Positions 5,820 to 58,601 of a DNA stretch of 64,000 bases are shown here, in pieces. The stretch lies in NCBI GenBank assembly GCA_946411695.1, contig CAMKEX010000002.1, positions 6,141 through 70,140 on the forward strand, read 5' to 3'. Numbering within the stretch: the stretch's first letter is position 1; every line of letters begins with the position of its first letter. The position numbers and the translations under genes are program-made. Origin of the DNA: an uncultured Lachnospiraceae bacterium. GTDB taxonomy: Bacteria > Bacillota > Clostridia > Lachnospirales > Lachnospiraceae. The notes below the pieces were generated by a model. It saw nothing but the letters and a program-made list of their open reading frames with translations, was not told the origin of the DNA and did no database searches.

Positions 5820-6704
5820 TTAGCGCTTCAGGCTCTTGTGGTTCTTGCGGTACTGGCCGGGGGAAGATCCGACTTTTTTAACAAAGAGGTTGATGAGGCT
5901 TCCGCTGTTGGAATAGCCGACTTCCTCCGCAATCTCGGACACCGTCATGTTTGTCGTCAGAAGGAGAGTCTTGGCGCGCTCGATTCGGGTGTTGATCACA
6001 TACTCCAGGGGAGAGAAGCCTGTTTCGCGCTTGAACATATGGGAAAAGTAGTAGGGACTGAGCTGCGCTATGCCAGCCAGTTCTTCGAGGGTGATGGGCT
6101 TGCCGACATTGGCGCGGATATATTCCACGGCTGCAGTGATGGGCAGTTCCTCTTTCTGCTCCTGCCTTGTAGGAGATAAAAGAATCTCGAACAGCCTGTA
6201 GATGCGCATGGAACTTTCAAAGATTCCCTCCGCGTGACTGCGCTCATACAGATAGACCATATCCTGCAGCAGGATATTGACACGCTCGTTGCGGCTGTCC
6301 CGCACAAGATTTCCATCTGCGCCGCGGTTCTCTCCGCGAAGGATCCACCCGTGGAGATCGATGATTCTCTGCGTGATCTCGTGCGAGTTTGAACCTGAAT
6401 AGTGCATGTAAAGAAATTCCAGATTGTTCTCCGCGTGGTAGTAATGAGGCTCTGTGCAGTCCAGGAGAACGACGTCGCCTTCCTGCGCCTGTCGGATCTC
6501 TCCCCGGTATTCTACGTTGAGAACGCCTTTGCGTATGTATAGGACCAGAAGCGGCGGGTAGTGGTTTCTCCTCATAAAGTAGCGCGAAGAGCAGTAATAG
6601 TGACCGCACCAGGTTGGATAGAAGTAGAGTTTCCTTGCGATTTCCGGGGGTGTAAACGAAAAACAGATCGAATTTGGCAGAACACCGATGTCAACACTTT
6701 TCAC
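5820..6704 (-). CDS. AraC family transcriptional regulator, copy 2
   Basis: 294 aa, colinear with 3008-3892 but with many substitutions. Confidence 0.9.
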   Translation of the reverse strand: MKSVDIGVLPNSICFSFTPPEIARKLYFYPTWCGHYYCSSRYFMRRNHYPPLLVLYIRKGVLNVEYRGEIRQAQEGDVVLLDCTEPHYYHAENNLEFLYMHYSGSNSHEITQRIIDLHGWILRGENRGADGNLVRDSRNERVNILLQDMVYLYERSHAEGIFESSMRIYRLFEILLSPTRQEQKEELPITAAVEYIRANVGKPITLEELAGIAQLSPYYFSHMFKRETGFSPLEYVINTRIERAKTLLLTTNMTVSEIAEEVGYSNSGSLINLFVKKVGSSPGQYRKNHKSLKR

Positions 6705-7164
6705 AAAAAACCACCTTTCGATTTATGGAAATCAACAATAAATACCTTCAAAATTGTACACTTTGCAAAAAATATACAGCAGGATTAAATAATTATAAAG
6801 CAAGATTAATGAGAAGCAGGATTGATGAATTTTTAAGCAAATCCATCTATTTCGTCAAGATGGTTTCCATTATATACTAAGCCTAGCAAAAAAACAAATA
6901 GGCATGCAAAAGGGGGTAATATTTCATAAAAAAATATTCCTGTAACGCCAGTATTTGTGCATTTTTGCTTTGACAAGCTCAAATTTCCGGAAAAAAGAGC
7001 AGAGTTATTTCATGAGCAAGAACTGATAATTTTTTGTCAACAAAAAACAGGGACACGGTCCTGCGGGACCAATGACAAAGCAAGAAAACAGTAAAGCAAA
7101 CATGGCACAGAACCGGCTCGAAGCAGTCCGGCGCAAAATCAAATTTTCAAAAAGGAGATCAGAT

Positions 7165-41856: not shown

Positions 41857-41943
41857 TTGACAATTCTGTAATACTTGCTAATATTGGAATTAAATATGGA
41901 ATAATGGGGGCGGGAACTGGAACAGAATTCCAAATATGGAATT
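41857..41943 (+). promoter_or_regulatory. Promoter and palindromic operator upstream of the XRE-Uma2 gene
   Basis: TTGACA(41857)-N16-TAATAT with TG extension; AATTCCA-aata-TGGAATT at 41926-41943; AAATATGGAAT repeated at 41892. Confidence 0.65.
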
Positions 41944-41965
41944 ATTTATAAGAGGAAGAACGCTG

Positions 41966-42946
41966 ATGATCATACAGGAAATAAAGGATAGAAAAAAGAA
42001 ATTGGGGATGACGAACAGCGAACTTGCGGAGCGATCCGGAGTCCCTCTTTCTACCGTTGCAAAGGTTCTGGGGGGAACTACGCGGAGACCGCGGATCGAT
42101 ACGATCCGCGCACTGGAAGCTGCTCTTGGCGGAGAGATCGGTTACGGCACAGCCCGACTGATACAGCAGGAAGGAGCAGCCATGGAACCCGGGGATTCCT
42201 ATATATACGGCAGCAATGCAAGAAAAGAGGACAGTTCCCGCTCACATTCTTCTGAAGAGAAAGGCGATGTGGGAGAAAACAGTAAAACCGGGGGTATTCC
42301 GCGAACCGGCGATCTATATGGGCATGAAATCCGGGTGGGAGACGAGGATTATTCAGTAGAATCTTTTGAAAAAAGAGCAGACGGGATAAAAGTGCCGCTG
42401 CACACGGTTGAGGATTATCTGGCACTTCCTGATGAACGCCGGGTCGAGATGATTGATGGCCGGTTTTATGATCTGGCCGCACCGGGAGGAATTCATCAGC
42501 AGATTGTAATGCGTCTGTGGAAGAAGCTTGATGACTGCATTGAAGAGCATAGCATGCCCTGCAGTGCGCAGGCTTCACCTTTTGATGTTCAGCTGGATGA
42601 CTACACGATTGTCCAGCCGGATGTCATGGTGTTCTGCCGGGATCCGCTGCAGGTATATGCTGACCGTGCGACAGTTCCCCCGGACCTGGTGATCGAGGTC
42701 TTATCAAAATCCACAGCTTTCAGAGACCGGCACCTGAAGCTTTTTAAGTATCAGAAAGCGGGTGTCAGAGAGGTGTGGCTTGTGTCACCGGAGAAACGGG
42801 GTGTGGAAGTATATCTGTTCGAGGAGAGCAGAGAAGAGCCGGAAAGATACACTTTTGACGATAAGGTGCCTGTTCATATTTCCAATGGCAGCTGCGATAT
42901 TGACTTTGCGGACATTCACAGGAAACTTGCCGACTATCTTCCGTAA
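41966..42946 (+). CDS. XRE-family HTH fused to Uma2 (DUF820) PD-(D/E)xK nuclease-like domain
   Basis: 'MTNSELAERSGVPLSTVAKVLGG'; 'EMIDG..Y.LAAP...HQ', 'VQPDV', 'PDLVIEVLS', 'Y..AGVREVWLV'. Confidence 0.88.
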   Translation: MIIQEIKDRKKKLGMTNSELAERSGVPLSTVAKVLGGTTRRPRIDTIRALEAALGGEIGYGTARLIQQEGAAMEPGDSYIYGSNARKEDSSRSHSSEEKGDVGENSKTGGIPRTGDLYGHEIRVGDEDYSVESFEKRADGIKVPLHTVEDYLALPDERRVEMIDGRFYDLAAPGGIHQQIVMRLWKKLDDCIEEHSMPCSAQASPFDVQLDDYTIVQPDVMVFCRDPLQVYADRATVPPDLVIEVLSKSTAFRDRHLKLFKYQKAGVREVWLVSPEKRGVEVYLFEESREEPERYTFDDKVPVHISNGSCDIDFADIHRKLADYLP

Positions 42947-43190: not shown

Positions 43191-44546
43191 ATGCAGAAGA
43201 CCAGAGAGAACAAAATGGGCACTATGCCTGTAAAAAAACTGATCATCACCATGTCGCTGCCCATGATGGTATCCATGCTGGTGCAGGCTCTTTACAATGT
43301 CGTGGACAGTATGTTTGTCGCGCGGCTCTCGGAGGATGCCCTGACGGCAGTCACCCTGGCCTTCCCCATGCAGAATATGCTGATTTCTTTCGCGGCAGGT
43401 ACAGGCGTCGGTATCAATGCCCTCCTGTCCAAGTCGCTGGGAGAGAAGCGGTTTGACCGGGCGGACGAAGCCGCCAACAACGGCCTGTTCCTGGCCATCC
43501 TGACCTATATCCTTTTCCTGCTGATCGGCCTGTTCGGCGCGGGACCCTTTATCGGGACGCAGATCAAGGATGCCCTGGTGCAGGAGTACGGCACGATCTA
43601 TCTGAGGATCGTCCTGTGCATGTCCTTCGGCGCGGTTTTCCAGATCACCTTTGAGAGGCTGCTGCAGTCTACCGGCCGCACTTTCTACAGTATGATCTCC
43701 CAGGCCACCGGTGCCATCATCAATATCATTTTTGACCCGATCATGATCTTCGGCCTCTTCGGCTTCCCCAGGATGGGTGTCGCCGGCGCCGCGGCCGCTA
43801 CCGTTCTCGGCCAGGTTGTCGCCGCCTGTATCAGCTGCTACCTGAATATTACAAAGAACGAGGACATCAATATCTCGATCCCGCAGATCCTGCATCCCTC
43901 CGGGGAGATCATTAAAAAGATCTACTTCGTAGCCGCGCCGTCCATCCTGATGATGTCCATCGGTTCCATCATGACCTATGCCATGAACCAGATCCTGGGT
44001 ACATTCTCCAAGACGGCGACCGCAGTCTTCGGTGTATACTTCAAGCTCCAGAGCTTCTTCTTCATGCCGGTCTTTGGTCTGAACAACGGACTCATCCCTG
44101 TGCTCGCCTACAATTACGGCGCGCGCAGGAGCGACCGCATCAAGGAGGCCCTCAAGTTCTCCATCAGTCTGGCCGTGGGCATCATGCTCTGCGGAACTCT
44201 GGTCTTCCACATGTTCCCCCAGGCCCTTCTGGGTATGTTCAATGCCTCTGAGGAAATGACCCGCATCGGTGTTCCCGCCCTGAGGATCATCTCACTTTCC
44301 TTTGGTCTGGCGGGTGCCTGCATTGCCATGGGTTCCATCTTCCAGGCTTTCTCCTACAGCTACTACTCCCTGATCGTCTCTGTAGGACGACAGCTGGTAG
44401 TCCTGATTCCGGTCGCCATGTTCCTGGCCACCTTCGGCGAAGTCACCCTGATCTGGTGGGCCTTCCCCATCGCGGAACTGATGTCGGCACTGCTGTCCGT
44501 CATCTTCTTCCTGCGCCTCTATAACAGGACCGTGAAGACCTTGTGA
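43191..44546 (+). CDS. MATE family efflux transporter
   Basis: 'LYNVVDSMFVARL', 'LLQSTG', 'NIIFDPIMIFG', 'GVAGAAAAT', 'YNYGA'; start uncertain by about 14 codons. Confidence 0.93.
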   Translation: MQKTRENKMGTMPVKKLIITMSLPMMVSMLVQALYNVVDSMFVARLSEDALTAVTLAFPMQNMLISFAAGTGVGINALLSKSLGEKRFDRADEAANNGLFLAILTYILFLLIGLFGAGPFIGTQIKDALVQEYGTIYLRIVLCMSFGAVFQITFERLLQSTGRTFYSMISQATGAIINIIFDPIMIFGLFGFPRMGVAGAAAATVLGQVVAACISCYLNITKNEDINISIPQILHPSGEIIKKIYFVAAPSILMMSIGSIMTYAMNQILGTFSKTATAVFGVYFKLQSFFFMPVFGLNNGLIPVLAYNYGARRSDRIKEALKFSISLAVGIMLCGTLVFHMFPQALLGMFNASEEMTRIGVPALRIISLSFGLAGACIAMGSIFQAFSYSYYSLIVSVGRQLVVLIPVAMFLATFGEVTLIWWAFPIAELMSALLSVIFFLRLYNRTVKTL

Positions 44547-51652: not shown

Positions 51653-52162
51653 ATGTACGATACTGCGGATGATAAAAAAGACCTTTTTGTATATAGAGGC
51701 GGAGACAGTGAGGACCGGGAGCAGTCGGATCCTTCCCTTCATCATGGCGCGGATGGGCAGGAAGATGAATATGGACAGACGCACAGCCATATAGATGAGA
51801 ACGGCAATGTGTACACGCACAGTCACGGCGGTGAACATGAGCATGCGCACGGGGATGCGCATATTCATTCACATGGCGGACACGGTCATCATCATGTACA
51901 CAGTGTGAAGGAAAAGAAGGCGGTTCTCAACAGGCTCTCCCGGGCCATCGGCCATCTGGAATCTGTCAGGAGGATGGTGGAGCGGGACGAGGACTGCAGT
52001 GACGTGCTGATCCAGCTTTCCGCAGTCCGCAACGCCATCAACAATACCGGCAAAGTGATCATGAAAAATCATATCAGCCACTGTATCGTAGAGGCGATCG
52101 AGCAGGATGATCTGGAAGCGGTGGAAGCTCTGAACCACGCGATCGATCATTTCATCAAGTGA
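51653..52162 (+). CDS. CsoR/RcnR-family metal-sensing repressor with His-rich N-terminal extension
   Basis: 'VLNRLSRAIGHLESVRRMVE..EDCSDVLIQLSAVR...KNHISHC'; poly-His segment upstream. Confidence 0.88.
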   Translation: MYDTADDKKDLFVYRGGDSEDREQSDPSLHHGADGQEDEYGQTHSHIDENGNVYTHSHGGEHEHAHGDAHIHSHGGHGHHHVHSVKEKKAVLNRLSRAIGHLESVRRMVERDEDCSDVLIQLSAVRNAINNTGKVIMKNHISHCIVEAIEQDDLEAVEALNHAIDHFIK

Positions 52163-52224
52163 CTGACGGGACGATGGAGGCTGCCGCTTTGAACGGCGCT
52201 TTATCCATAGGCCGATCGGCTCGC

Positions 52225-52328
52225 ACAGCCAATGGAGCTCACGCAGCCAATGGAGCTTGCGCAGCCAATGGAGCTCGCGCAGCCAATGGAGCTCGCGCAG
52301 CCAATGGAGCTCACGCAGCCATTGGAAC
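52225..52328. repeat. 18-bp tandem repeat, 5 full copies plus a partial
   Basis: Unit GCAGCCAATGGAGCTCGC (with variants) starts at 52225, 52243, 52261, 52279, 52297 and (partial) 52315. Confidence 0.95.
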
Positions 52329-52340
52329 TGAGGTATACAT

Positions 52341-53108
52341 ATGGAAGACAGATTTTCCAGGAGCAGGATGCTGCTGGGGGAAGCGGCAATGAATAAGCTT
52401 GCGGCGTCCAGGGTCGCCGTCTTCGGCGTCGGCGGCGTAGGGGGCTACGTTGTGGAGGCTCTGGCCAGAAGCGGAGTTGGAGAGATCGACCTGATCGACA
52501 ATGACGAGGTGGCGCTCTCGAACCTGAACCGCCAGATCATCGCGACCATGGATACGATCGGCAGGGACAAGGTCGATGTCATGGCGGAGCGCATTCTGTC
52601 CATCAATCCGGATGCCGTGGTACACAGACATAAATGCTTCTACCTTCCGGAGACAGCCGGACAGTTTGACTTTTCCGCCTATGACTATGTGGTGGACGCC
52701 ATTGACACGGTGACGGGCAAGATCCAGCTGATCCTGCAGGCCAAGGAGGCAGGCGTGCCCGTCATCAGCGCCATGGGCGCGGGTAATAAACTTGATCCCT
52801 CTGCCTTCGAAGTGGCGGATATTTATGAGACTTCCATAGATCCTCTGGCGCGGGTCATGCGCCGGGAATTGAAAAAGCGTGGTGTGAAGAGCCTGAAGGT
52901 CGTATATTCCAGGGAGAAACCTCTGCAGCCGGCAGGAGCCGGTGAAAAACAGACCGCAGGAGCCGGTGAAAGGGAGGAAGAGTCCCGTCCGCGCCGGTCG
53001 ACACCGGGAAGTCTCCCCTTCGTGCCCTCTGTGGCAGGGCTCATCATTGCAGGCGAAGTGATCATGGACCTGTGCGAAGCTGGGGGCGGTATCCGCCGGG
53101 ATGTATAA
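52341..53108 (+). CDS. tcdA: tRNA threonylcarbamoyladenosine dehydratase (ThiF/E1-like)
   Basis: 'VAVFGVGGVGG', 'LIDND.V..SNLNRQ', 'YVVDAID', 'SAMGAGNKLDP', 'DPLARVMR'. Confidence 0.82.
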   Translation: MEDRFSRSRMLLGEAAMNKLAASRVAVFGVGGVGGYVVEALARSGVGEIDLIDNDEVALSNLNRQIIATMDTIGRDKVDVMAERILSINPDAVVHRHKCFYLPETAGQFDFSAYDYVVDAIDTVTGKIQLILQAKEAGVPVISAMGAGNKLDPSAFEVADIYETSIDPLARVMRRELKKRGVKSLKVVYSREKPLQPAGAGEKQTAGAGEREEESRPRRSTPGSLPFVPSVAGLIIAGEVIMDLCEAGGGIRRDV

Positions 53109-53180
53109 AGATCCGGAGGGACTTTTTTCGCAGATGCGGCAGAGCCCGGGATGACAGTGGAGGACGGCCGGGGAAGAACT

Positions 53181-54578
53181 ATGAAAAACCGGAGTATTAT
53201 TCAAAACAGCATAATCTCTGATATGTCGGAAGGTGTCATGGCCATTCGGTTTGACGGCATGATCGAGCTTGTCAACGATGCTGCGGTGGAAATTCTGGAA
53301 CGGGAGAGAGAGGAACTGGAGAACAGGAAGTTTGCCAGCTGTTTTTTTGCGGAGGAGGAGAATGACCCCTTCACGGAATGTGTTCTGGATGTCATCTATA
53401 TGAAGGGCAAGCGGCAGGAGAGATATGTGCCCTATTATACAGGGCGGGGGCGGAAGCAGCTGCGTATTGTATCCTCCTATCTCAAAGAAGAGGATGAGCC
53501 TGTGGGCGTGATCCTGGTCATCAGCGATATCACGGAACTGACCCAGATGCGGGACGCTGTCATGGCCATGGAAAAGATCAGGAAGCTCAATGAGAGTCTG
53601 GCATTGCGCAACCGGGTGCTGCAGGAGACCTTCGGACGGTATCTGTCCGATGATATTGTCAGGGAGATCCTCGAGTCTCCGGACGGCTGGAAGCTGGGCG
53701 GGCAAAAGCGCACGCTGACCATCATGATGAGTGATCTCAGGGGCTTTACCATGCTCTGCGAAAGGATGCAGCCCCAGGATCTGATCGCCATGGTCAATCA
53801 CTATTTTTCCGAGATGTACGAGGAAATCAGCCGCTTCAACGGAACCCTGATCGAGTTCCTCGGAGATGGTATGTTTGTGATCTTCGGCGCTCCTGTGGCC
53901 ACAGATACCCACGCCTCGGACGCGGTGGCGGCTGCGGTCGGCATGCAGAGCAGGATGAAGGCCGTCAACGAGTGGAACGCGGAGCGGGGGTTCGAACCCC
54001 TGTCGATGGGGATCGGCATCAACACGGATGCCGTGATCCTGGGCAACATCGGTTCCGAGCGCCGCACCAAATACGGCGTCATGGGGGCTGCTGTCAATCT
54101 GGCGGGAAGGATCGAATCCTACACGACAGAAGGTCAGATCCTGATCTCCACGGCGACCCGCGCCATGATCCGGGAGGATCTGGAGGTCGATTTCACACTC
54201 GATATAAGCCCCAAGGGAGTACAGGAAACGACCAGGGTTTACGGGGTGTCGGGGATCGGTGCTCCCTATGATCTGCACCTGGAGAAAAAAACAGAGCAGC
54301 TGAGACAACTGCCGGTTCCGGCTGCCGCAGACATTTACTTCCTGGACGGAAAGCATGTGTCCGGCGAAAAAAGGAAGGGGATGATCCTGGCGGTCTCAGA
54401 CAATGAGCTGGTCCTGCAGACGGAGGAGGAACTTTCCGTCTATGAGAATCTGAAGATCGACATAGGCGATGGTCTCTATGCCAAAATAACACAGAAGGAA
54501 AATGACCTGTTCACTCTCCGCCTGACGGCAAAACCCGCCTGTTTTGACGCCTGGATGGAGAAGGTTATTTGCGTATGA
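53181..54578 (+). CDS. PAS-domain class III nucleotidyl cyclase with guanylyl-cyclase-type specificity residues
   Basis: N-terminal PAS-like segment, signalling helix, 'TIMMSDLRGFT', 'IEFLGD', 'GIGINT', 'KYGVMGAAVNLAGRIES'; no TM helix. Confidence 0.9.
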   Translation: MKNRSIIQNSIISDMSEGVMAIRFDGMIELVNDAAVEILEREREELENRKFASCFFAEEENDPFTECVLDVIYMKGKRQERYVPYYTGRGRKQLRIVSSYLKEEDEPVGVILVISDITELTQMRDAVMAMEKIRKLNESLALRNRVLQETFGRYLSDDIVREILESPDGWKLGGQKRTLTIMMSDLRGFTMLCERMQPQDLIAMVNHYFSEMYEEISRFNGTLIEFLGDGMFVIFGAPVATDTHASDAVAAAVGMQSRMKAVNEWNAERGFEPLSMGIGINTDAVILGNIGSERRTKYGVMGAAVNLAGRIESYTTEGQILISTATRAMIREDLEVDFTLDISPKGVQETTRVYGVSGIGAPYDLHLEKKTEQLRQLPVPAAADIYFLDGKHVSGEKRKGMILAVSDNELVLQTEEELSVYENLKIDIGDGLYAKITQKENDLFTLRLTAKPACFDAWMEKVICV

Positions 54579-54609
54579 TATGATTTGCATCAGTGATAAA
54601 AACAGGTAA

Positions 54610-55461
54610 TTGAAAAAGATGACTACGAAACCGGTTTATATAGATACCTGTCTGTTCGGGAGTTCTTCACTGTCCCGGGTCAGGGACTATTCCAGAGTTT
54701 ACGGAGATAAAATAGGATTTGAGATTCTGGCCATGTTTGATCTGCGCGATTATGAAAAGGCGCTGAGAGACAATCTCGATGTCCTGCAAAAGCACAGGAT
54801 CTCCTTCCACGGACCGGTCTATTGTGTGGAGCATTCCGCAGCGAGGGGAACAGCTGAATATGAGGAGTCCATGCGGCATGTCCGCCTGACTTATCAGTAC
54901 GCACAGATCCTGAGAAGTTCCTATTTTGTCATGCATCTGAACAACTGCCGCGTCGATCCGGCCGCCAAAGAGCAGATGCTGTACAACGCAAAGGAAAATT
55001 ACAGGGAACTCCTGGAGCTTTTCGGAAGGATCGACTGCCGGGTGCTGATCGAAAACACGGGGACGATCCTGCAGAAAAACATGCTGCTGGACCAGAGGGA
55101 ATTTACAGATTTCTGCCGTGATATGCGGTGCGGCGTGCTAATAGATATCGGACACGCAAATGCCAATGGCTGGGATCTCTTTAAGCTGATCAAAGATCTG
55201 CGGCGGCAGATCCGCGCCTACCATCTGCACAACAACGACGGCATGAATGACCAGCACCGGCGCCTGCACGACGGGACCATTGATTTCACTCCCCTGCTGG
55301 AGAAGATCCTGACAGATACGCCGGATGCGGATCTCATCATCGAATACACCCGCAGGACTATGGACGGCCCCGGTCTTCAAGAGGATATACAAGAGGTGCT
55401 TGATGCCAGAGAACGCCGGCAGGGCAGCTGCAATTCAACAAAACAGATTTACAAAAAATAA
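54610..55461 (+). CDS. AP endonuclease 2 / xylose isomerase-like TIM-barrel metalloenzyme
   Basis: 'FHGP', 'VMH', 'LIEN', 'DIGH', 'YHLHNN', 'DQH', 'IIEY' metal-ligand pattern. Confidence 0.8.
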   Translation: MKKMTTKPVYIDTCLFGSSSLSRVRDYSRVYGDKIGFEILAMFDLRDYEKALRDNLDVLQKHRISFHGPVYCVEHSAARGTAEYEESMRHVRLTYQYAQILRSSYFVMHLNNCRVDPAAKEQMLYNAKENYRELLELFGRIDCRVLIENTGTILQKNMLLDQREFTDFCRDMRCGVLIDIGHANANGWDLFKLIKDLRRQIRAYHLHNNDGMNDQHRRLHDGTIDFTPLLEKILTDTPDADLIIEYTRRTMDGPGLQEDIQEVLDARERRQGSCNSTKQIYKK

Positions 55462-55551
55462 ATAAACTGTTTGCAGTATATAGTATAATATGTCTGTGAG
55501 CGTATAAAAATTACCACAATTGTAAAAACCGTTAATGAGAGGAGTAAAAAC

Positions 55552-56565
55552 ATGCAGGAAAAAACATTTAACCAGAATGAAGTGATTTTCTGGGAGGGAT
55601 CTTCAGGTAAATGCATGTACAAGGTCATCGAGGGTACAGTCAGTGTCTTTCTCGGCTACGGGACCAAGGACGAGACAAAGCTGACGGAACTCGGTGAAGG
55701 CAGGATCTTCGGCGAAATGGCAGTTCTGGAGGCGTGGACAAGGTCTGCTACAGTTGTGGCCGCACATGACGAGGTCAAAGTTCTGGAGATCAGCAGCGAA
55801 GAACTCAGTGATTTCTTTGCAGAAGACCCCGAACAGATTAGGCTGATCATGAAGAACCTGAGCCGCCGCCTGCGCGAACTGACCGAGGATTACACGGAAG
55901 TCTGCAATACGATCAGCGAGATGCATCGGACCAGAGGAGAGATTGACCGCAGAAAAGAAGGACTCCTCTCCAAAATCAAAAAATTCCTCAAAGACTATGA
56001 TCGTTTCTTCAACCTGAGCACTTCTCTCGAAGCAATGGAAACGTATGAAGATATCGAACAGATCCGGGAAGATCACGGTGAGATGAGGGAGAACCTTCGT
56101 TTCGACAAGGATCAGGTGATCTTCCGCCAGGGCGATGCGGGAGACTGCATGTACTATATCGGAAGCGGCACTGTGGGAATCTATACAGACTATCAAACAG
56201 ATCATGAGGTCCTGCTCACTGAACTCAATGAGAACCAGTTCTTCGGCGAAATGGGACTGATTGAAAAGCTGCCCCGTTCCGCAACTGCTGTTGTTCTGGA
56301 AGATGACACAGTTCTGACCCGTCTCACTGAGGATGGCCTGGACCGGATGTTTGAGGAAAGACCCACCTTTATCCTGCTTGCCATGCAGCACCTTTCCTCC
56401 AGACTTCGCCGTCTGACAAAAGAATACGGAAAGGCCTGCAGGACGGTCGCCAAGATGAATGACGAAGAAAACGGCAGGGGCGAACTCACAATGAACGATG
56501 AAGACGCGATCCGGTATTATGTCGCTCTTGCCCAGAGTCGGAGCAACCGCTGGATGTATTATTAA
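55552..56565 (+). CDS. Protein with two cyclic nucleotide-binding domains and no HTH
   Basis: Two repeats: 'VIFWEG..G.CMY....G.V...FGEMAVLE...RSATV' and 'VIFRQG..G.CMY....G.V...FGEMGLIE...RSATA', each followed by a C-helix. Confidence 0.9.
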   Translation: MQEKTFNQNEVIFWEGSSGKCMYKVIEGTVSVFLGYGTKDETKLTELGEGRIFGEMAVLEAWTRSATVVAAHDEVKVLEISSEELSDFFAEDPEQIRLIMKNLSRRLRELTEDYTEVCNTISEMHRTRGEIDRRKEGLLSKIKKFLKDYDRFFNLSTSLEAMETYEDIEQIREDHGEMRENLRFDKDQVIFRQGDAGDCMYYIGSGTVGIYTDYQTDHEVLLTELNENQFFGEMGLIEKLPRSATAVVLEDDTVLTRLTEDGLDRMFEERPTFILLAMQHLSSRLRRLTKEYGKACRTVAKMNDEENGRGELTMNDEDAIRYYVALAQSRSNRWMYY

Positions 56566-56653: not shown

Positions 56654-57793
56654 ATGGCAAAGAACCTTCTGGATACACCCAAGCTCGGATTCGGCCTGAT
56701 GCGCCTGCCCGCGGTCGAGGGAAATCCCGATGTGATCGATCGCGAACAGGTCTGCAGAATGGTGGACATGTTCATGGAGGCGGGACTGACCTATTTTGAT
56801 ACCGCTTTTGTTTACGGAAAGGACGGCGCATCCGAGAAGGCCGCAAAGGCATGTCTTGTCGACCGCTATCCCAGGGAGAGCTTCACACTGGCCACCAAGA
56901 TCAACGCCTGGCTGATGGCGGAGGACGAGAAAGCCGCCAAGGCTCAGTTTTATACCAGCCTTGAGCGAACGGGAGCGGGATATTTTGATTTCTACCTGCT
57001 GCACGCGCTGCAGTCCAATACCTATAAAAAATATGACGAGTATCATCTCTGGGACTACGTGGCGGACCTCAAAAAACAGGGCCTGATCAAAAACATGGGC
57101 TTTTCCTTCCACGCCTCTCCCCAACTTCTGGAGCAGGTGCTGACTGAGCATCCGGAGGTGGATTTCGTCCAGCTGCAGCTCAACTACGCCGACTGGGAGA
57201 ACCCTTCCGTGACCTCCCGCGCAAACTATGAGGTCGCCCGCAGGCACAATAAGCCCATTGTTGTCATGGAACCGGTCAAGGGAGGAACCCTTGCCAATCC
57301 CCCGGCTCCTGTCCGCGAGATCCTGCAGGCGGCCGATCCGGATGCTTCCATGGCATCCTGGGCCATCCGCTATATCGCCTCCCTTCCCGGGATCCTGACC
57401 ATCCTTTCCGGCATGTCCAATGTGGAGCAGATGGCGGATAACCTCTCCTACATGCGCAAAGAGGCCTTTCGTCCTTTCAGCGAGGCGGAGCAGGAGACCA
57501 TGCGCAGGGCGAAGGAGGCGCTCGCAGCGATTCCCTCCATCCCCTGCACGGGCTGCAGCTACTGCGCGCCCGGCTGCCCCATGAATATTCCGATTCCCGA
57601 TATCTTTGATGCCAGAAACCGCCAGATGGTCTATGGCAAAACAGAAGAGGGACAGAGAGTCTATGACCGCGACACACAGGGCAGGGGAAAAGCCTCCGAC
57701 TGCATTGCCTGCGGCCAGTGCGAGGGCGCATGTCCTCAGCGCATCAATATCATCGAGCGCCTGCAGGATTGCGCGGCAGTTTTCGACAATTGA
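56654..57793 (+). CDS. Aldo/keto reductase with C-terminal 4Fe-4S ferredoxin domain
   Basis: 'LGFGLMRLP', 'YFDTA', 'VMEPVKGG', 'CTGCSYCAPGCP', 'CIACGQCEGACP'. Confidence 0.93.
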   Translation: MAKNLLDTPKLGFGLMRLPAVEGNPDVIDREQVCRMVDMFMEAGLTYFDTAFVYGKDGASEKAAKACLVDRYPRESFTLATKINAWLMAEDEKAAKAQFYTSLERTGAGYFDFYLLHALQSNTYKKYDEYHLWDYVADLKKQGLIKNMGFSFHASPQLLEQVLTEHPEVDFVQLQLNYADWENPSVTSRANYEVARRHNKPIVVMEPVKGGTLANPPAPVREILQAADPDASMASWAIRYIASLPGILTILSGMSNVEQMADNLSYMRKEAFRPFSEAEQETMRRAKEALAAIPSIPCTGCSYCAPGCPMNIPIPDIFDARNRQMVYGKTEEGQRVYDRDTQGRGKASDCIACGQCEGACPQRINIIERLQDCAAVFDN

Positions 57794-57908: not shown

Positions 57909-58601
57909 ATGGTAGAGACAGATCGGGATCAGGATGTGAACAGGGGCACAGAAGCTGCGAAGACCGGTGTCATTGACGGTACACAGCCTGCAGAAGACGC
58001 AGCTGTTGAGAATAAAAAGGCTGCCGGACCCGCGGCGGCTGACGGCAGAAAGACTGCCGGGCCTGCAGCCGGACAAGGCGGAAAAGCTGCCGGACCTGCA
58101 GGCGGACAGAGCAGGAAGAAGGGCCGGCGCAAAAGCGGCGGGGCAGCGGAGACTGCTGGACAGGCAGGCCGTAAAGGCAGCCGGACAGAAAAACACAGAA
58201 AAGCAGCCGGGAAAAGCAGCCGGAAACATAAGACGACAGCCCAGACGATCACAAAGAGTTTCGGACATGCATTTGACGGAATATTTGCCGGCTTGGAAGA
58301 ACGCAATATGAAGATCCATTGCACCATGGCAGTGCTGGTCGTGTTTTTCGGACTGATCCTGCACATCTCTGTGACCGAGTGGTGCATCTGCCTGGTTCTT
58401 TTCGGACTGATCATGGGCCTGGAACTTGTCAACACAGCGCTTGAGGCTGTGGTTGACCTGGTGACAAAGGAATATCAGCCTCTGGCAAAACGGGCCAAGG
58501 ACACGGCTGCCGGGGCGGTCCTGATCGCTGCCATCATGGCGGCGGCAGCAGGCCTGATCATCTTTATTCCCCGCCTTTTGTATGTGCTCAGAAGCTTCTG
58601 A
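57909..58601 (+). CDS. dgkA: Diacylglycerol/undecaprenol kinase (DgkA family) with low-complexity N-terminal extension
   Basis: 'SFGHAFDGI...ERNMKIH', 'LELVNTALEAVVDL', 'AKRAKDTAAGAVL'; three 33-bp repeats at 58017-58115. Confidence 0.85.
   Translation: MVETDRDQDVNRGTEAAKTGVIDGTQPAEDAAVENKKAAGPAAADGRKTAGPAAGQGGKAAGPAGGQSRKKGRRKSGGAAETAGQAGRKGSRTEKHRKAAGKSSRKHKTTAQTITKSFGHAFDGIFAGLEERNMKIHCTMAVLVVFFGLILHISVTEWCICLVLFGLIMGLELVNTALEAVVDLVTKEYQPLAKRAKDTAAGAVLIAAIMAAAAGLIIFIPRLLYVLRSF

Follow-up and report, generated by a model that had tools for sequence, protein, structure and literature searches.

A candidate cyclic-GMP signalling module with a proposed TIM-barrel phosphodiesterase in a Lachnospiraceae bacterium

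Organization of the locus

The three adjacent genes described here lie on the plus strand of a 64,000-nt stretch of DNA (the window, in which coordinates are counted from the first letter) from a strictly anaerobic Lachnospiraceae bacterium, and they probably constitute a self-contained second-messenger module based on cyclic GMP (cGMP). The first gene (53181-54578) encodes a cyclase of 465 aa made up of a PAS domain, a signalling helix/transducer element, a class III catalytic domain and a PilZ-fold domain. The second (54610-55461) encodes a xylose-isomerase-like TIM barrel of 283 aa with an endonuclease IV-like set of His, Asp and Glu residues, the proposed cGMP phosphodiesterase, and the third (55552-56565) a stand-alone protein of 337 aa with two tandem cyclic nucleotide-binding (CNB) domains, the proposed receptor. 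An earlier reading of the same DNA (the original prediction) had placed three co-oriented genes here, and the three plus-strand open reading frames (ORFs) were all recovered.

The spacers between the cyclase and TIM-barrel genes and between the TIM-barrel and CNB genes measure 31 and 90 bp, and no terminator-like site was found on the plus strand in either of them. Promoter and terminator scans of the locus gave nothing above background level, and a search of the whole window against Rfam returned no match to a riboswitch or any other RNA. We prefer the cyclase start at 53181 because a Shine-Dalgarno-like stretch (GGGGAAG) lies 4-10 nt before this ATG, and rejected the upstream ATG at 53151 on the same grounds. 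An antisense ORF of 681 aa on the minus strand (52311-54356) was likewise rejected as a gene, because it overlaps two well supported plus-strand genes, the cyclase gene and the TcdA-like gene upstream of it; similarly long antisense ORFs lie over other supported genes of the window.

A Cya2-type cyclase with an N-terminal sensor

The catalytic domain of the cyclase (53709-54284, residues 177-368) is that of a class III nucleotidyl cyclase of the Cya2 type, matching Guanylate_cyc (PF00211) over residues 177-346 with an E-value of 2.8e-27 (95.9 bits, against a Pfam cut-off of 21.9). The two metal-binding residues Asp185 and Asp229 are present, as are the transition-state residues Asn306 and Arg310. 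At the position where adenylyl cyclases have Lys, the protein has Glu225 (codon GAG, 53853-53855, in G-T-L-I-E-F-L-G-D-G), which aligns with the specificity Glu of Cya2. The stretch Lys297-Tyr298-Gly299 (54069-54077, in R-T-K-Y-G-V-M-G-A-A) aligns with K-Y-G of Cya2, its Gly (GGC, 54075-54077) occupying a position held by Asp or Thr in adenylyl cyclases. The metal Asp pair, the N...R pair and the codons for Glu and Gly had all been pointed out in the original prediction, and each was seen again. Cya2 itself carries this Glu-Gly pair instead of the Lys-Asp/Thr pair of adenylyl cyclases, its Glu being assisted by a Lys and its Gly working together with a Tyr, and shows a strong preference for GTP (PMC6005667).

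When all PDB sequences were searched with the cyclase, the best natural match was Cya2 (2w01, 9.1e-56), with 94/197 identities (48%) in a gap-free BLASTP alignment spanning residues 171-368. The only match above it is 6fht, a phytochrome-cyclase fusion that has KF where 2w01 has EF at the Glu position, and the next one below is CyaB of P. aeruginosa (3r5g, 3.4e-31). The likeness to Cya2 noted in the original prediction is therefore real, and the alignment to both kinds of enzyme that had been proposed as a check favours Cya2, as the adenylyl cyclases score 3e-31 or weaker.

Homologues of the cyclase number 5598 at E<=1e-10, and the best 120 are full-length. The best genome match, with 94% amino-acid identity, is a metagenome-assembled genome (MAG) of an uncultured Lachnospiraceae bacterium, in support of the Lachnospiraceae origin of the window; further relatives were found in MAGs from the rumen and the gut, and a cluster look-up for cultured hosts gave MAG names only. 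When the 120 best database homologues (59-97% identity to the cyclase) were aligned with MAFFT, D185, E225, D229, Y298, G299, N306 and R310 proved invariant (120/120), and K297 is kept in 119/120. A metagenome scan found the whole D-E-D-K-Y-G-N-R set in 52/58 related loci. The same scan retrieved, from other metagenomes, 40 more distant relatives (33-41% identity) reading D-K-D-E/D-Y-T-N-R, which is, going by the residues, the adenylyl signature, with the Glu and Lys charges swapped between two positions. As these distant relatives carry the adenylyl signature, the Glu/Gly state is a derived and conserved property of the clade to which the cyclase belongs. Taken with the properties of Cya2, this residue set makes it likely that the cyclase prefers GTP, and the cGMP source of the original prediction holds up to this extent on sequence alone.

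Some relatives of the cyclase are short (250 aa) and lack a PAS domain. They were found in loci L012 and L013 (~5968-6720), L015 (1131-1883) and L016 (5947-6696; Sarcina sp. DSM 11001), have Glu/Asp or Asp/Asp where our cyclase has the specificity pair Glu/Gly, and are adjoined by CNB genes in every case and by genes of the metallo-beta-lactamase (MBL) fold in all but L015. The cyclase of Schwartzia has Glu/Ser at these positions.

The N-terminal PAS sensor domain (53208-53540, residues ~10-120) is recognized by PAS_9 (9.4e-07) and PAS (7.3e-05) of Pfam and by the NCBIfam model sensory_box; the sequence, read directly, shows neither a His nor the LOV Cys motif in this domain. The catalytic domain is preceded by a linker, L-Q-E-T-F-G-R-Y-L-S-D-D-I-V-R-E-I-L-E-S-P-D-G-W-K-L-G-G (53619-53708), which is conserved with the pre-cyclase segment of 6fht (the alignment begins at residue 147 of our protein) and which we take to be a 'cyclase transducer element'. 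T150, F151, G152, R153 and Y154 of this linker are invariant in the cyclase family alignment, and the conserved T-F-G-R-Y-L-S-D, shared with the Cya2-derived chain of 6fht, agrees with a dimeric cyclase under the control of its sensor. No hydrophobic segment was found in the cyclase, and a PAS domain stands in place of the CHASE2-transmembrane N-terminus that was looked for, a difference in architecture and not in catalysis. Together these features indicate a cytoplasmic, sensor-linked enzyme, in agreement with the PAS-controlled cytoplasmic cyclase originally envisaged.

The last ~100 residues of the cyclase gave no match in Pfam, PilZ included. An AlphaFold2 model of this region (mean predicted local distance difference test, pLDDT, of 88) shows a beta-barrel followed by a helix, and its top Foldseek matches are almost all PilZ domains (BcsA, 4xrn (PA), Alg44, MapZ, PlzA, YcgR and MrkH), with E-values of 8e-4 to 5e-2 and template-modelling (TM) scores of ~0.55-0.63. 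The model thus places a PilZ fold, a six-stranded beta-barrel plus a final helix, at the C-terminus of the cyclase (54303-54575, residues ~375-465). The cyclic di-GMP motifs RxxxR and D/NxSxxG are not conserved in the family consensus, which has no conserved RxxxR before strand 1 and reads A-x-S-E-x-x-A at the second motif position. For this reason we speak of a PilZ-fold domain and not of a cyclic di-GMP receptor. The domain was absent from the original prediction and came to light through structure prediction, not through Pfam. The architecture PAS…guanylyl cyclase…PilZ-fold is new for a cyclase of the Cya2 type.

A tandem CNB protein linked to the cyclase

The product of the third gene matches PF00027 (cNMP_binding) in two stretches (1.9e-40, 137 bits) and has no further domain in Pfam. 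Its phosphate-binding cassettes are F53-G-E-M-A-V-L-E-A-W-T-R-S-A66 in domain A (55708-55749), where F53, G54, E55, M56, R64, S65 and A66 are invariant in the CNB family alignment, and F230-F-G-E-M-G-L-I-E-K-L-P-R-S-A-T245 in domain B (56239-56286), where F230, F231, G232, E233 and R242 are. Both cassettes read F-G-E-M…R-S-A across the family, and this invariance supports well, as far as sequence can, the competence of the protein to bind cyclic nucleotides. A family-specific motif, R-L-R-x-L-T-x-D-Y-x-x-x-C, follows each of the two domains. A phmmer search of the PDB matched the RI-alpha subunit of protein kinase A (PKA) in two stretches (1.7e-13), cGMP-dependent protein kinase (PKG) and Bd1971.

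Members of this family are stand-alone proteins of ~330 aa. Among the 120 best homologues no domain other than PF00027 was found in Pfam, with the single exception of a 408-aa protein (P0287) that is encoded on a 1.5-kb contig and covers only half of the query.

The adjacent receptor gene of the original prediction proved to be a lasting feature of these loci: of 36 non-redundant cyclase loci that have 1 kb or more of flanking sequence, 29 carry a CNB gene on the same strand and no more than 1.5 kb from the cyclase gene. This linkage extends beyond close relatives, to Lachnospiraceae, Oscillospiraceae, Ruminococcaceae, Saccharofermentans and Sarcina, and it is kept in differing gene orders, the CNB gene being found either upstream or downstream of the cyclase gene, as one fused gene in Lachnospiraceae and as two single-domain genes in Oscillospiraceae. 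There is thus a strong case, in which the ligand is assigned by gene linkage, for predicting that the CNB protein is the receptor for the cyclase product. A different kind of CNB protein is encoded downstream of a cyclase-MBL fusion in L023 (8292-9134): it has one cNMP-binding domain, joined to a ParB_N-like domain that scores weakly (1.9e-05, just under the cut-off).

A TIM-barrel protein as a possible phosphodiesterase

The sole Pfam match of the TIM-barrel protein is AP_endonuc_2 (PF01261; 7.6e-18, 65.5 bits against a cut-off of 31.1), and its AlphaFold2 model is an eight-strand barrel with a pLDDT of 94.9. The best NCBIfam matches are the phosphodiesterase CbiR (4.7e-11) and deoxyribonuclease IV (3.9e-4), neither reaching its cut-off (42.7 against 105 bits and 20.1 against 244 bits, respectively). 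With a score so far under the cut-off for deoxyribonuclease IV, the protein is not an orthologue of that enzyme (Nfo). An identity with CbiR is not indicated either, as the gene is surrounded by the cyclase and CNB genes and by no cobamide genes. CbiR nevertheless provides an example of a metal-dependent cut of a small-molecule phosphodiester by this fold (PMC7733943). The protein matches, in Pfam, none of the known classes of cyclic-nucleotide phosphodiesterases (class I, HD-type; class II, MBL-type; class III, the CpdA metallophosphoesterases), and a phosphodiesterase recognized by PF01261 only would therefore belong to a new class.

Thirteen polar residues are invariant in the family alignment of the TIM-barrel protein: H67, H75, H109, E148, D179, H182, H205, H207, D210, D214, H216, R218 and E245. 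An hhalign comparison with Nfo of E. coli K-12 pairs E148, D179, H182, H205, D214, H216 and E245 with E145, D179, H182, H216, D229, H231 and E261, which we take to be metal ligands in Nfo. In the model, H67 and H109 are found at the ends of strands 3 and 4, presumably the strand ends at which Nfo has H69 and H109. The trinuclear, nine-ligand metal site of Nfo would then have seven equivalents assigned by a weak hhalign match and two (H67 and H109) placed from their invariance and their position at strand ends.

The genomic context of this family is more telling. All six homologues that were sampled (44-56% identity; from Synergistaceae, from Schwartzia of the Negativicutes and from other metagenome or MAG contigs) directly adjoin a PAS-cyclase gene, and in many cases the stop and start codons overlap or are 4 nt apart. 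Gene orders at such loci include APH-TIM-cyclase, MatE/HATPase-TIM-cyclase, CNB-cyclase-TIM, TIM-cyclase with the CNB gene on the opposite strand, CNB-TIM-cyclase-STAS and CNB-CNB-cyclase-TIM. The family is small, with 100 representatives at E<=1e-30 in a hidden Markov model (HMM) search of 1.84 billion representatives. The best HMM match is a TIM-PAS-cyclase fusion of 715 aa, encoded behind a CNB gene on a single 29-kb contig; it contains a Pro-rich linker that its split relative lacks, so that a simple frameshift does not account for it.

In Oscillospiraceae relatives, whose cyclases are ~61% identical to ours, the stop codon of the cyclase gene is overlapped by an MBL-fold gene (PF12706, with the motif HxHxDH), and one protein (P0023) is a fusion of an MBL-fold domain to the cyclase. 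The closest solved relatives of these MBL partners are 1zkp and 6kns, the latter presumably YhfI, and they bear a weak precomputed Pfam label, Anti-Pycsar_Apyc1. MBL phosphodiesterases of the B. subtilis YhfI type prefer cAMP and cGMP (Hobbs et al., PMC9117128). Among 49 non-redundant loci, the hydrolase beside the cyclase is a TIM barrel in 11 and an MBL protein in 18, and no locus has both. Two unrelated metal hydrolases that alternate in one slot, each of them fused to the cyclase somewhere, are the classic pattern of non-orthologous displacement and point to one shared job, the removal of the cyclase product.

These same counts decide how far the three-gene order of the original prediction can be generalized: the linkage of cyclase and CNB genes is conserved, but the full order is not universal, as the TIM-barrel gene is found in 11/49 relatives. 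The possible degrading enzyme proposed at the outset has gained strong contextual backing (adjacency in 6/6, one fusion, alternation with MBL genes) for a putative role as phosphodiesterase.

Several observations weigh against that role. Foldseek searches with the model returned only members of the superfamily, the uncharacterised MJ1311 first and sugar epimerases next, endonuclease IV coming after both, at ranks 19 and 43; the fold search thus confirms the superfamily without separating an epimerase from a phosphodiesterase. When the family profile was run against PDB sequences, it reached MJ1311 and IolI only, and not endonuclease IV. The hhalign match to Nfo has a probability of 30% and covers the C-terminal half only, and our literature search, incomplete in coverage, yielded no cyclic-nucleotide phosphodiesterase of TIM-barrel fold. 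Eleven of the 49 loci have full flanks and neither a TIM nor an MBL neighbour, and four loci containing a TIM-barrel gene have no adjacent CNB gene. The mutual exclusion of the two hydrolases also partly tracks taxonomy (Lachnospiraceae as opposed to Oscillospiraceae), and the loci are not independent; we therefore read these counts as circumstantial evidence, strong but not statistical.

The cyclic nucleotide module could accordingly be real and the TIM barrel not be its phosphodiesterase, acting instead as a sugar or sugar-phosphate isomerase/epimerase or another hydrolase, with a substrate or product that would be the signal sensed by the PAS domain, or simply being a co-regulated target. 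Its Pfam family, the public annotation 'sugar phosphate isomerase/epimerase' and the epimerase matches in Foldseek all fit such a role, the E-D-H-E quartet is common to the entire superfamily, and the TIM-cyclase pairs of Synergistaceae and Schwartzia stand beside a MatE-HATPase_c_2 fusion with no CNB gene. Set against this are the apparent dedication of the family to the cyclase, its absence from any slot occupied by an MBL gene, and the extra invariant His and Asp residues that match endonuclease IV ligands and that sugar epimerases are not known to have; furthermore, no sugar-catabolic gene adjoins the module in the window. We consider this alternative unlikely, though it is the strongest of those considered. 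For the cGMP phosphodiesterase itself, context and sequence together amount to roughly even odds.

Identity of the messenger

An adenylyl or dual-specificity cyclase would make the module one that signals by cAMP, with the tandem CNB protein as a cAMP receptor. This is suggested mainly by the receptor, whose cassettes carry R-S-A-T, the sequence also seen in CRP and Bd1971, which bind cAMP. The R-T of cGMP-selective domains of the PKG, CNG and CgrA type (a Thr after the cassette Arg, the Thr contacting the guanine 2-amino group) was not found in either domain of the window protein, both having R-S, although a few homologues have R-T in domain B. The cassettes of PKG have R-T. The same difference separates CgrA, with R-T, from CAP, with R-S (PMC10187061). 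The best single-domain PDB match is the cAMP-binding domain of Bd1971, CRP models match as well, and public annotation names some relatives 'adenylate cyclase' or 'CRP-like cAMP-binding protein'. The in-vitro specificity of bacterial class III cyclases can, moreover, be loose. The R-S cassettes lower our confidence in the cGMP selectivity of the CNB protein, which may bind cAMP or both nucleotides.

The cyclase, on the other hand, argues against cAMP. The Cya2 set of Glu and Lys-Tyr-Gly is conserved, the relatives with the adenylyl signature (Lys…Glu-Tyr-Thr) form a separate group, and the 6fht chain, which is named adenylate cyclase, has KF for EF, showing the weight carried by the Glu position. 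Given also the strong preference of Cya2 for GTP (PMC6005667), a cAMP module appears rather improbable, slightly more so than a TIM barrel with another function, and cGMP is retained as the probable messenger.

A Pycsar-like anti-phage system, in which infection would activate the cyclase and a cNMP-binding protein would be the effector, is very improbable. PADLOC gave matches at the domain level only, scoring 66 bits for PycC and 88 bits for the cNMP-binding part of PycTIR effectors, and the MBL partners carry the weak Anti-Pycsar_Apyc1 label. Yet the CNB protein lacks any killing domain, TIR and transmembrane ones included, the PycC score is far under that of Cya2, the cyclase has the purine-type Glu/Gly and a PAS sensor, and the module is syntenic with tcdA-like, aldo-keto reductase and diacylglycerol kinase genes across Lachnospiraceae species, with no mobile or defence genes beside it in the window.

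A chance or merely inherited proximity of the three genes, with no function in common, is the least credible of the explanations: the stretch from the csoR-like to the dagK-like gene is wholly syntenic in close Lachnospiraceae relatives, where adjacency is consequently uninformative, but the linkages hold at 36-62% cyclase identity, across phyla, in rearranged orders and in gene fusions, and these rearranged and fused arrangements exclude mere synteny.

Neighbouring genes and recurrent partners

The module is preceded by genes for a His-rich CsoR-like repressor and a TcdA/ThiF-like protein and followed by those for an aldo-keto reductase/4Fe-4S fusion, a diacylglycerol kinase and an ABC1 kinase, with transporters farther out; these flanking genes are ordinary chromosomal housekeeping genes. 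The CsoR-type metal-sensing repressor (51653-52162) has a long His-rich N-terminal extension (…HSHGGEHEHAHGDAHIHSHGGHGHHHVH…), and its gene is syntenic with the tcdA-like and cyclase genes in five Lachnospiraceae relatives. The spacer between the CsoR-like and TcdA-like genes holds a tandem repeat (52219-52326) of six 18-bp copies in perfect register, with 92% matches. Directly 3' of the CNB gene, the aldo-keto reductase with its C-terminal 4Fe-4S dicluster domain (56654-57793) is syntenic in some Lachnospiraceae relatives and absent from loci L001 and L004. The diacylglycerol kinase (57909-58601) has an N-terminal extension of ~110 aa that is repetitive and rich in Lys, Ala and Gly (…KAAGPAA…GRK…). 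Farther away, the window encodes a fusion of HTH_3 with Uma2, a putative restriction-endonuclease-like domain (41936-42946).

Other genes recur beside the cyclase in relatives. A fusion of a MatE transporter to HATPase_c_2 (anti-sigma-factor-kinase-like) lies beside the TIM-cyclase pair in L018 (2334-4139) and L020 (4235-5998) and upstream of the cyclase in L056 and L057; these loci belong to Synergistaceae, Schwartzia and two metagenome contigs and lack a gene for a cNMP-binding protein. An unfused MatE gene is found in the window (43191-44543) and close to the module in L003 and L006. A cyclase is itself fused to HATPase_c_2 in L024 (6001-7806; P0033), a HAMP-SpoIIE phosphatase follows the cyclase-MBL fusion of L023 (5364-6986), and a STAS protein follows the CNB-TIM-cyclase operon of L109 (6286-6594). 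These recurrent partner-switching parts (HATPase_c_2, SpoIIE, STAS) may represent the output pathway of the module.

Comparison with known systems

Documented cases of bacterial cGMP signalling amount to a handful: Cya2, R. centenum, Xanthomonas and Clr of Sinorhizobium. The enzyme closest to ours, Cya2 of Synechocystis sp. PCC 6803 (2w01), shares with it the catalytic domain, the Glu-Gly pair, Lys-Tyr, the metal Asp residues, Asn/Arg and the linker before the domain. Cya2, however, sits in the membrane and senses through an extracellular CHASE2 domain (PMC6005667), whereas the window cyclase is soluble, has a PAS domain and carries an additional PilZ-fold domain. A receptor for Cya2 is still awaiting discovery (PMC10187061), whereas a candidate receptor gene stands beside the window cyclase.

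As in our locus, a guanylyl cyclase is encoded beside a cNMP-binding receptor in the gcyB, gcyC and cgrA cluster of Rhodospirillum centenum (PMC10187061). CgrA differs in having a CRP-type helix-turn-helix output, while the window receptor consists of two bare cNMP-binding domains. Both R. centenum and Xanthomonas are Proteobacteria, in contrast to the anaerobic Bacillota host considered here. The cGMP system of Xanthomonas campestris likewise links writer and reader, its receptor having a GGDEF output domain, and we know of no TIM-barrel or MBL hydrolase at either the R. centenum or the Xanthomonas locus. Two consecutive cNMP-binding domains with intact cassettes are also found in PKA regulatory subunits and in PKG, but the window protein lacks a dimerisation/docking domain, an inhibitor sequence and a kinase partner, and has a motif of its own, R-L-R-x-L-T-x-D-Y-x-x-x-C.

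The TIM-barrel protein shares its fold with Nfo and CbiR, its two best NCBIfam neighbours and both of them phosphodiesterases. It differs from them in its scores, which are far below the cut-offs, in the absence of DNA-repair or cobamide genes near its gene in the window, and in its proposed substrate, cGMP being unprecedented for this fold. MBL phosphodiesterases of the YhfI/Apyc1 type, which occupy the TIM slot in Oscillospiraceae with the same proposed role, have an unrelated fold and are not encoded in the window.

Proposed mechanism and significance

In the mechanism that we propose, a signal would be sensed by the N-terminal PAS domain of a cytoplasmic homodimeric cyclase and relayed through the helical linker to the catalytic domain, which would convert GTP to 3',5'-cGMP. 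Glu225, backed by Lys297, is predicted to read the guanine, with Gly299 and Tyr298 providing the steric fit; Asp185 and Asp229 would hold the two metals, and Asn306 and Arg310 would stabilise the transition state. The PilZ-fold domain may serve as an extra regulatory or docking module. The product would be bound by the tandem CNB protein at its two intact cassettes, cGMP being the ligand that linkage to the cyclase implies. As this protein has no output domain, it must act through protein-protein contact, and we picture it on the model of a PKA regulatory subunit, releasing or capturing a partner. The TIM barrel would hydrolyse cGMP at a multi-metal centre like that of endonuclease IV and CbiR and so end the signal. 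Sequence and structure prediction directly reveal the domains, the residues for catalysis and specificity, the intact cassettes, the metal-site-like set of residues and the conserved linkage; GTP as substrate, cGMP as the ligand of the receptor, its hydrolysis by the TIM barrel and all downstream steps are what we infer from them.

The original prediction knew of no characterised Firmicute case of cGMP signalling, and the literature that we searched, which is incomplete in coverage, contained neither such a case nor a description of this module. The stand-alone, PKA-R-like tandem CNB reader is a new feature of cGMP systems, as are the proposed TIM-barrel eraser and the hosts, which are Lachnospiraceae, Oscillospiraceae, Synergistaceae and Negativicutes. 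For a cyclase of the Cya2 type, whose receptor has yet to be discovered (PMC10187061), the locus offers a complete candidate set of writer, reader and eraser. In public annotation the labels go no further than 'PAS domain protein', 'TIM barrel protein' and 'cyclic nucleotide-binding protein'. The PAS-guanylyl cyclase could also offer synthetic biology a compact scaffold for a soluble guanylyl cyclase.

Should the TIM barrel prove to be the eraser, it would represent a new enzyme class in cyclic-nucleotide biology and explain a gene family so far described as 'sugar isomerase-like'. The module is widespread in abundant and little-studied anaerobes of the gut and rumen. Taking all parts together, we tentatively suggest, at somewhat less than even odds for the whole, that the TIM barrel would constitute a fourth class of phosphodiesterase and that cGMP would be a widespread messenger in anaerobic gut and rumen Bacillota, Synergistota and Negativicutes, read by a PKA-R-like tandem CNB protein that perhaps feeds a partner-switching cascade.

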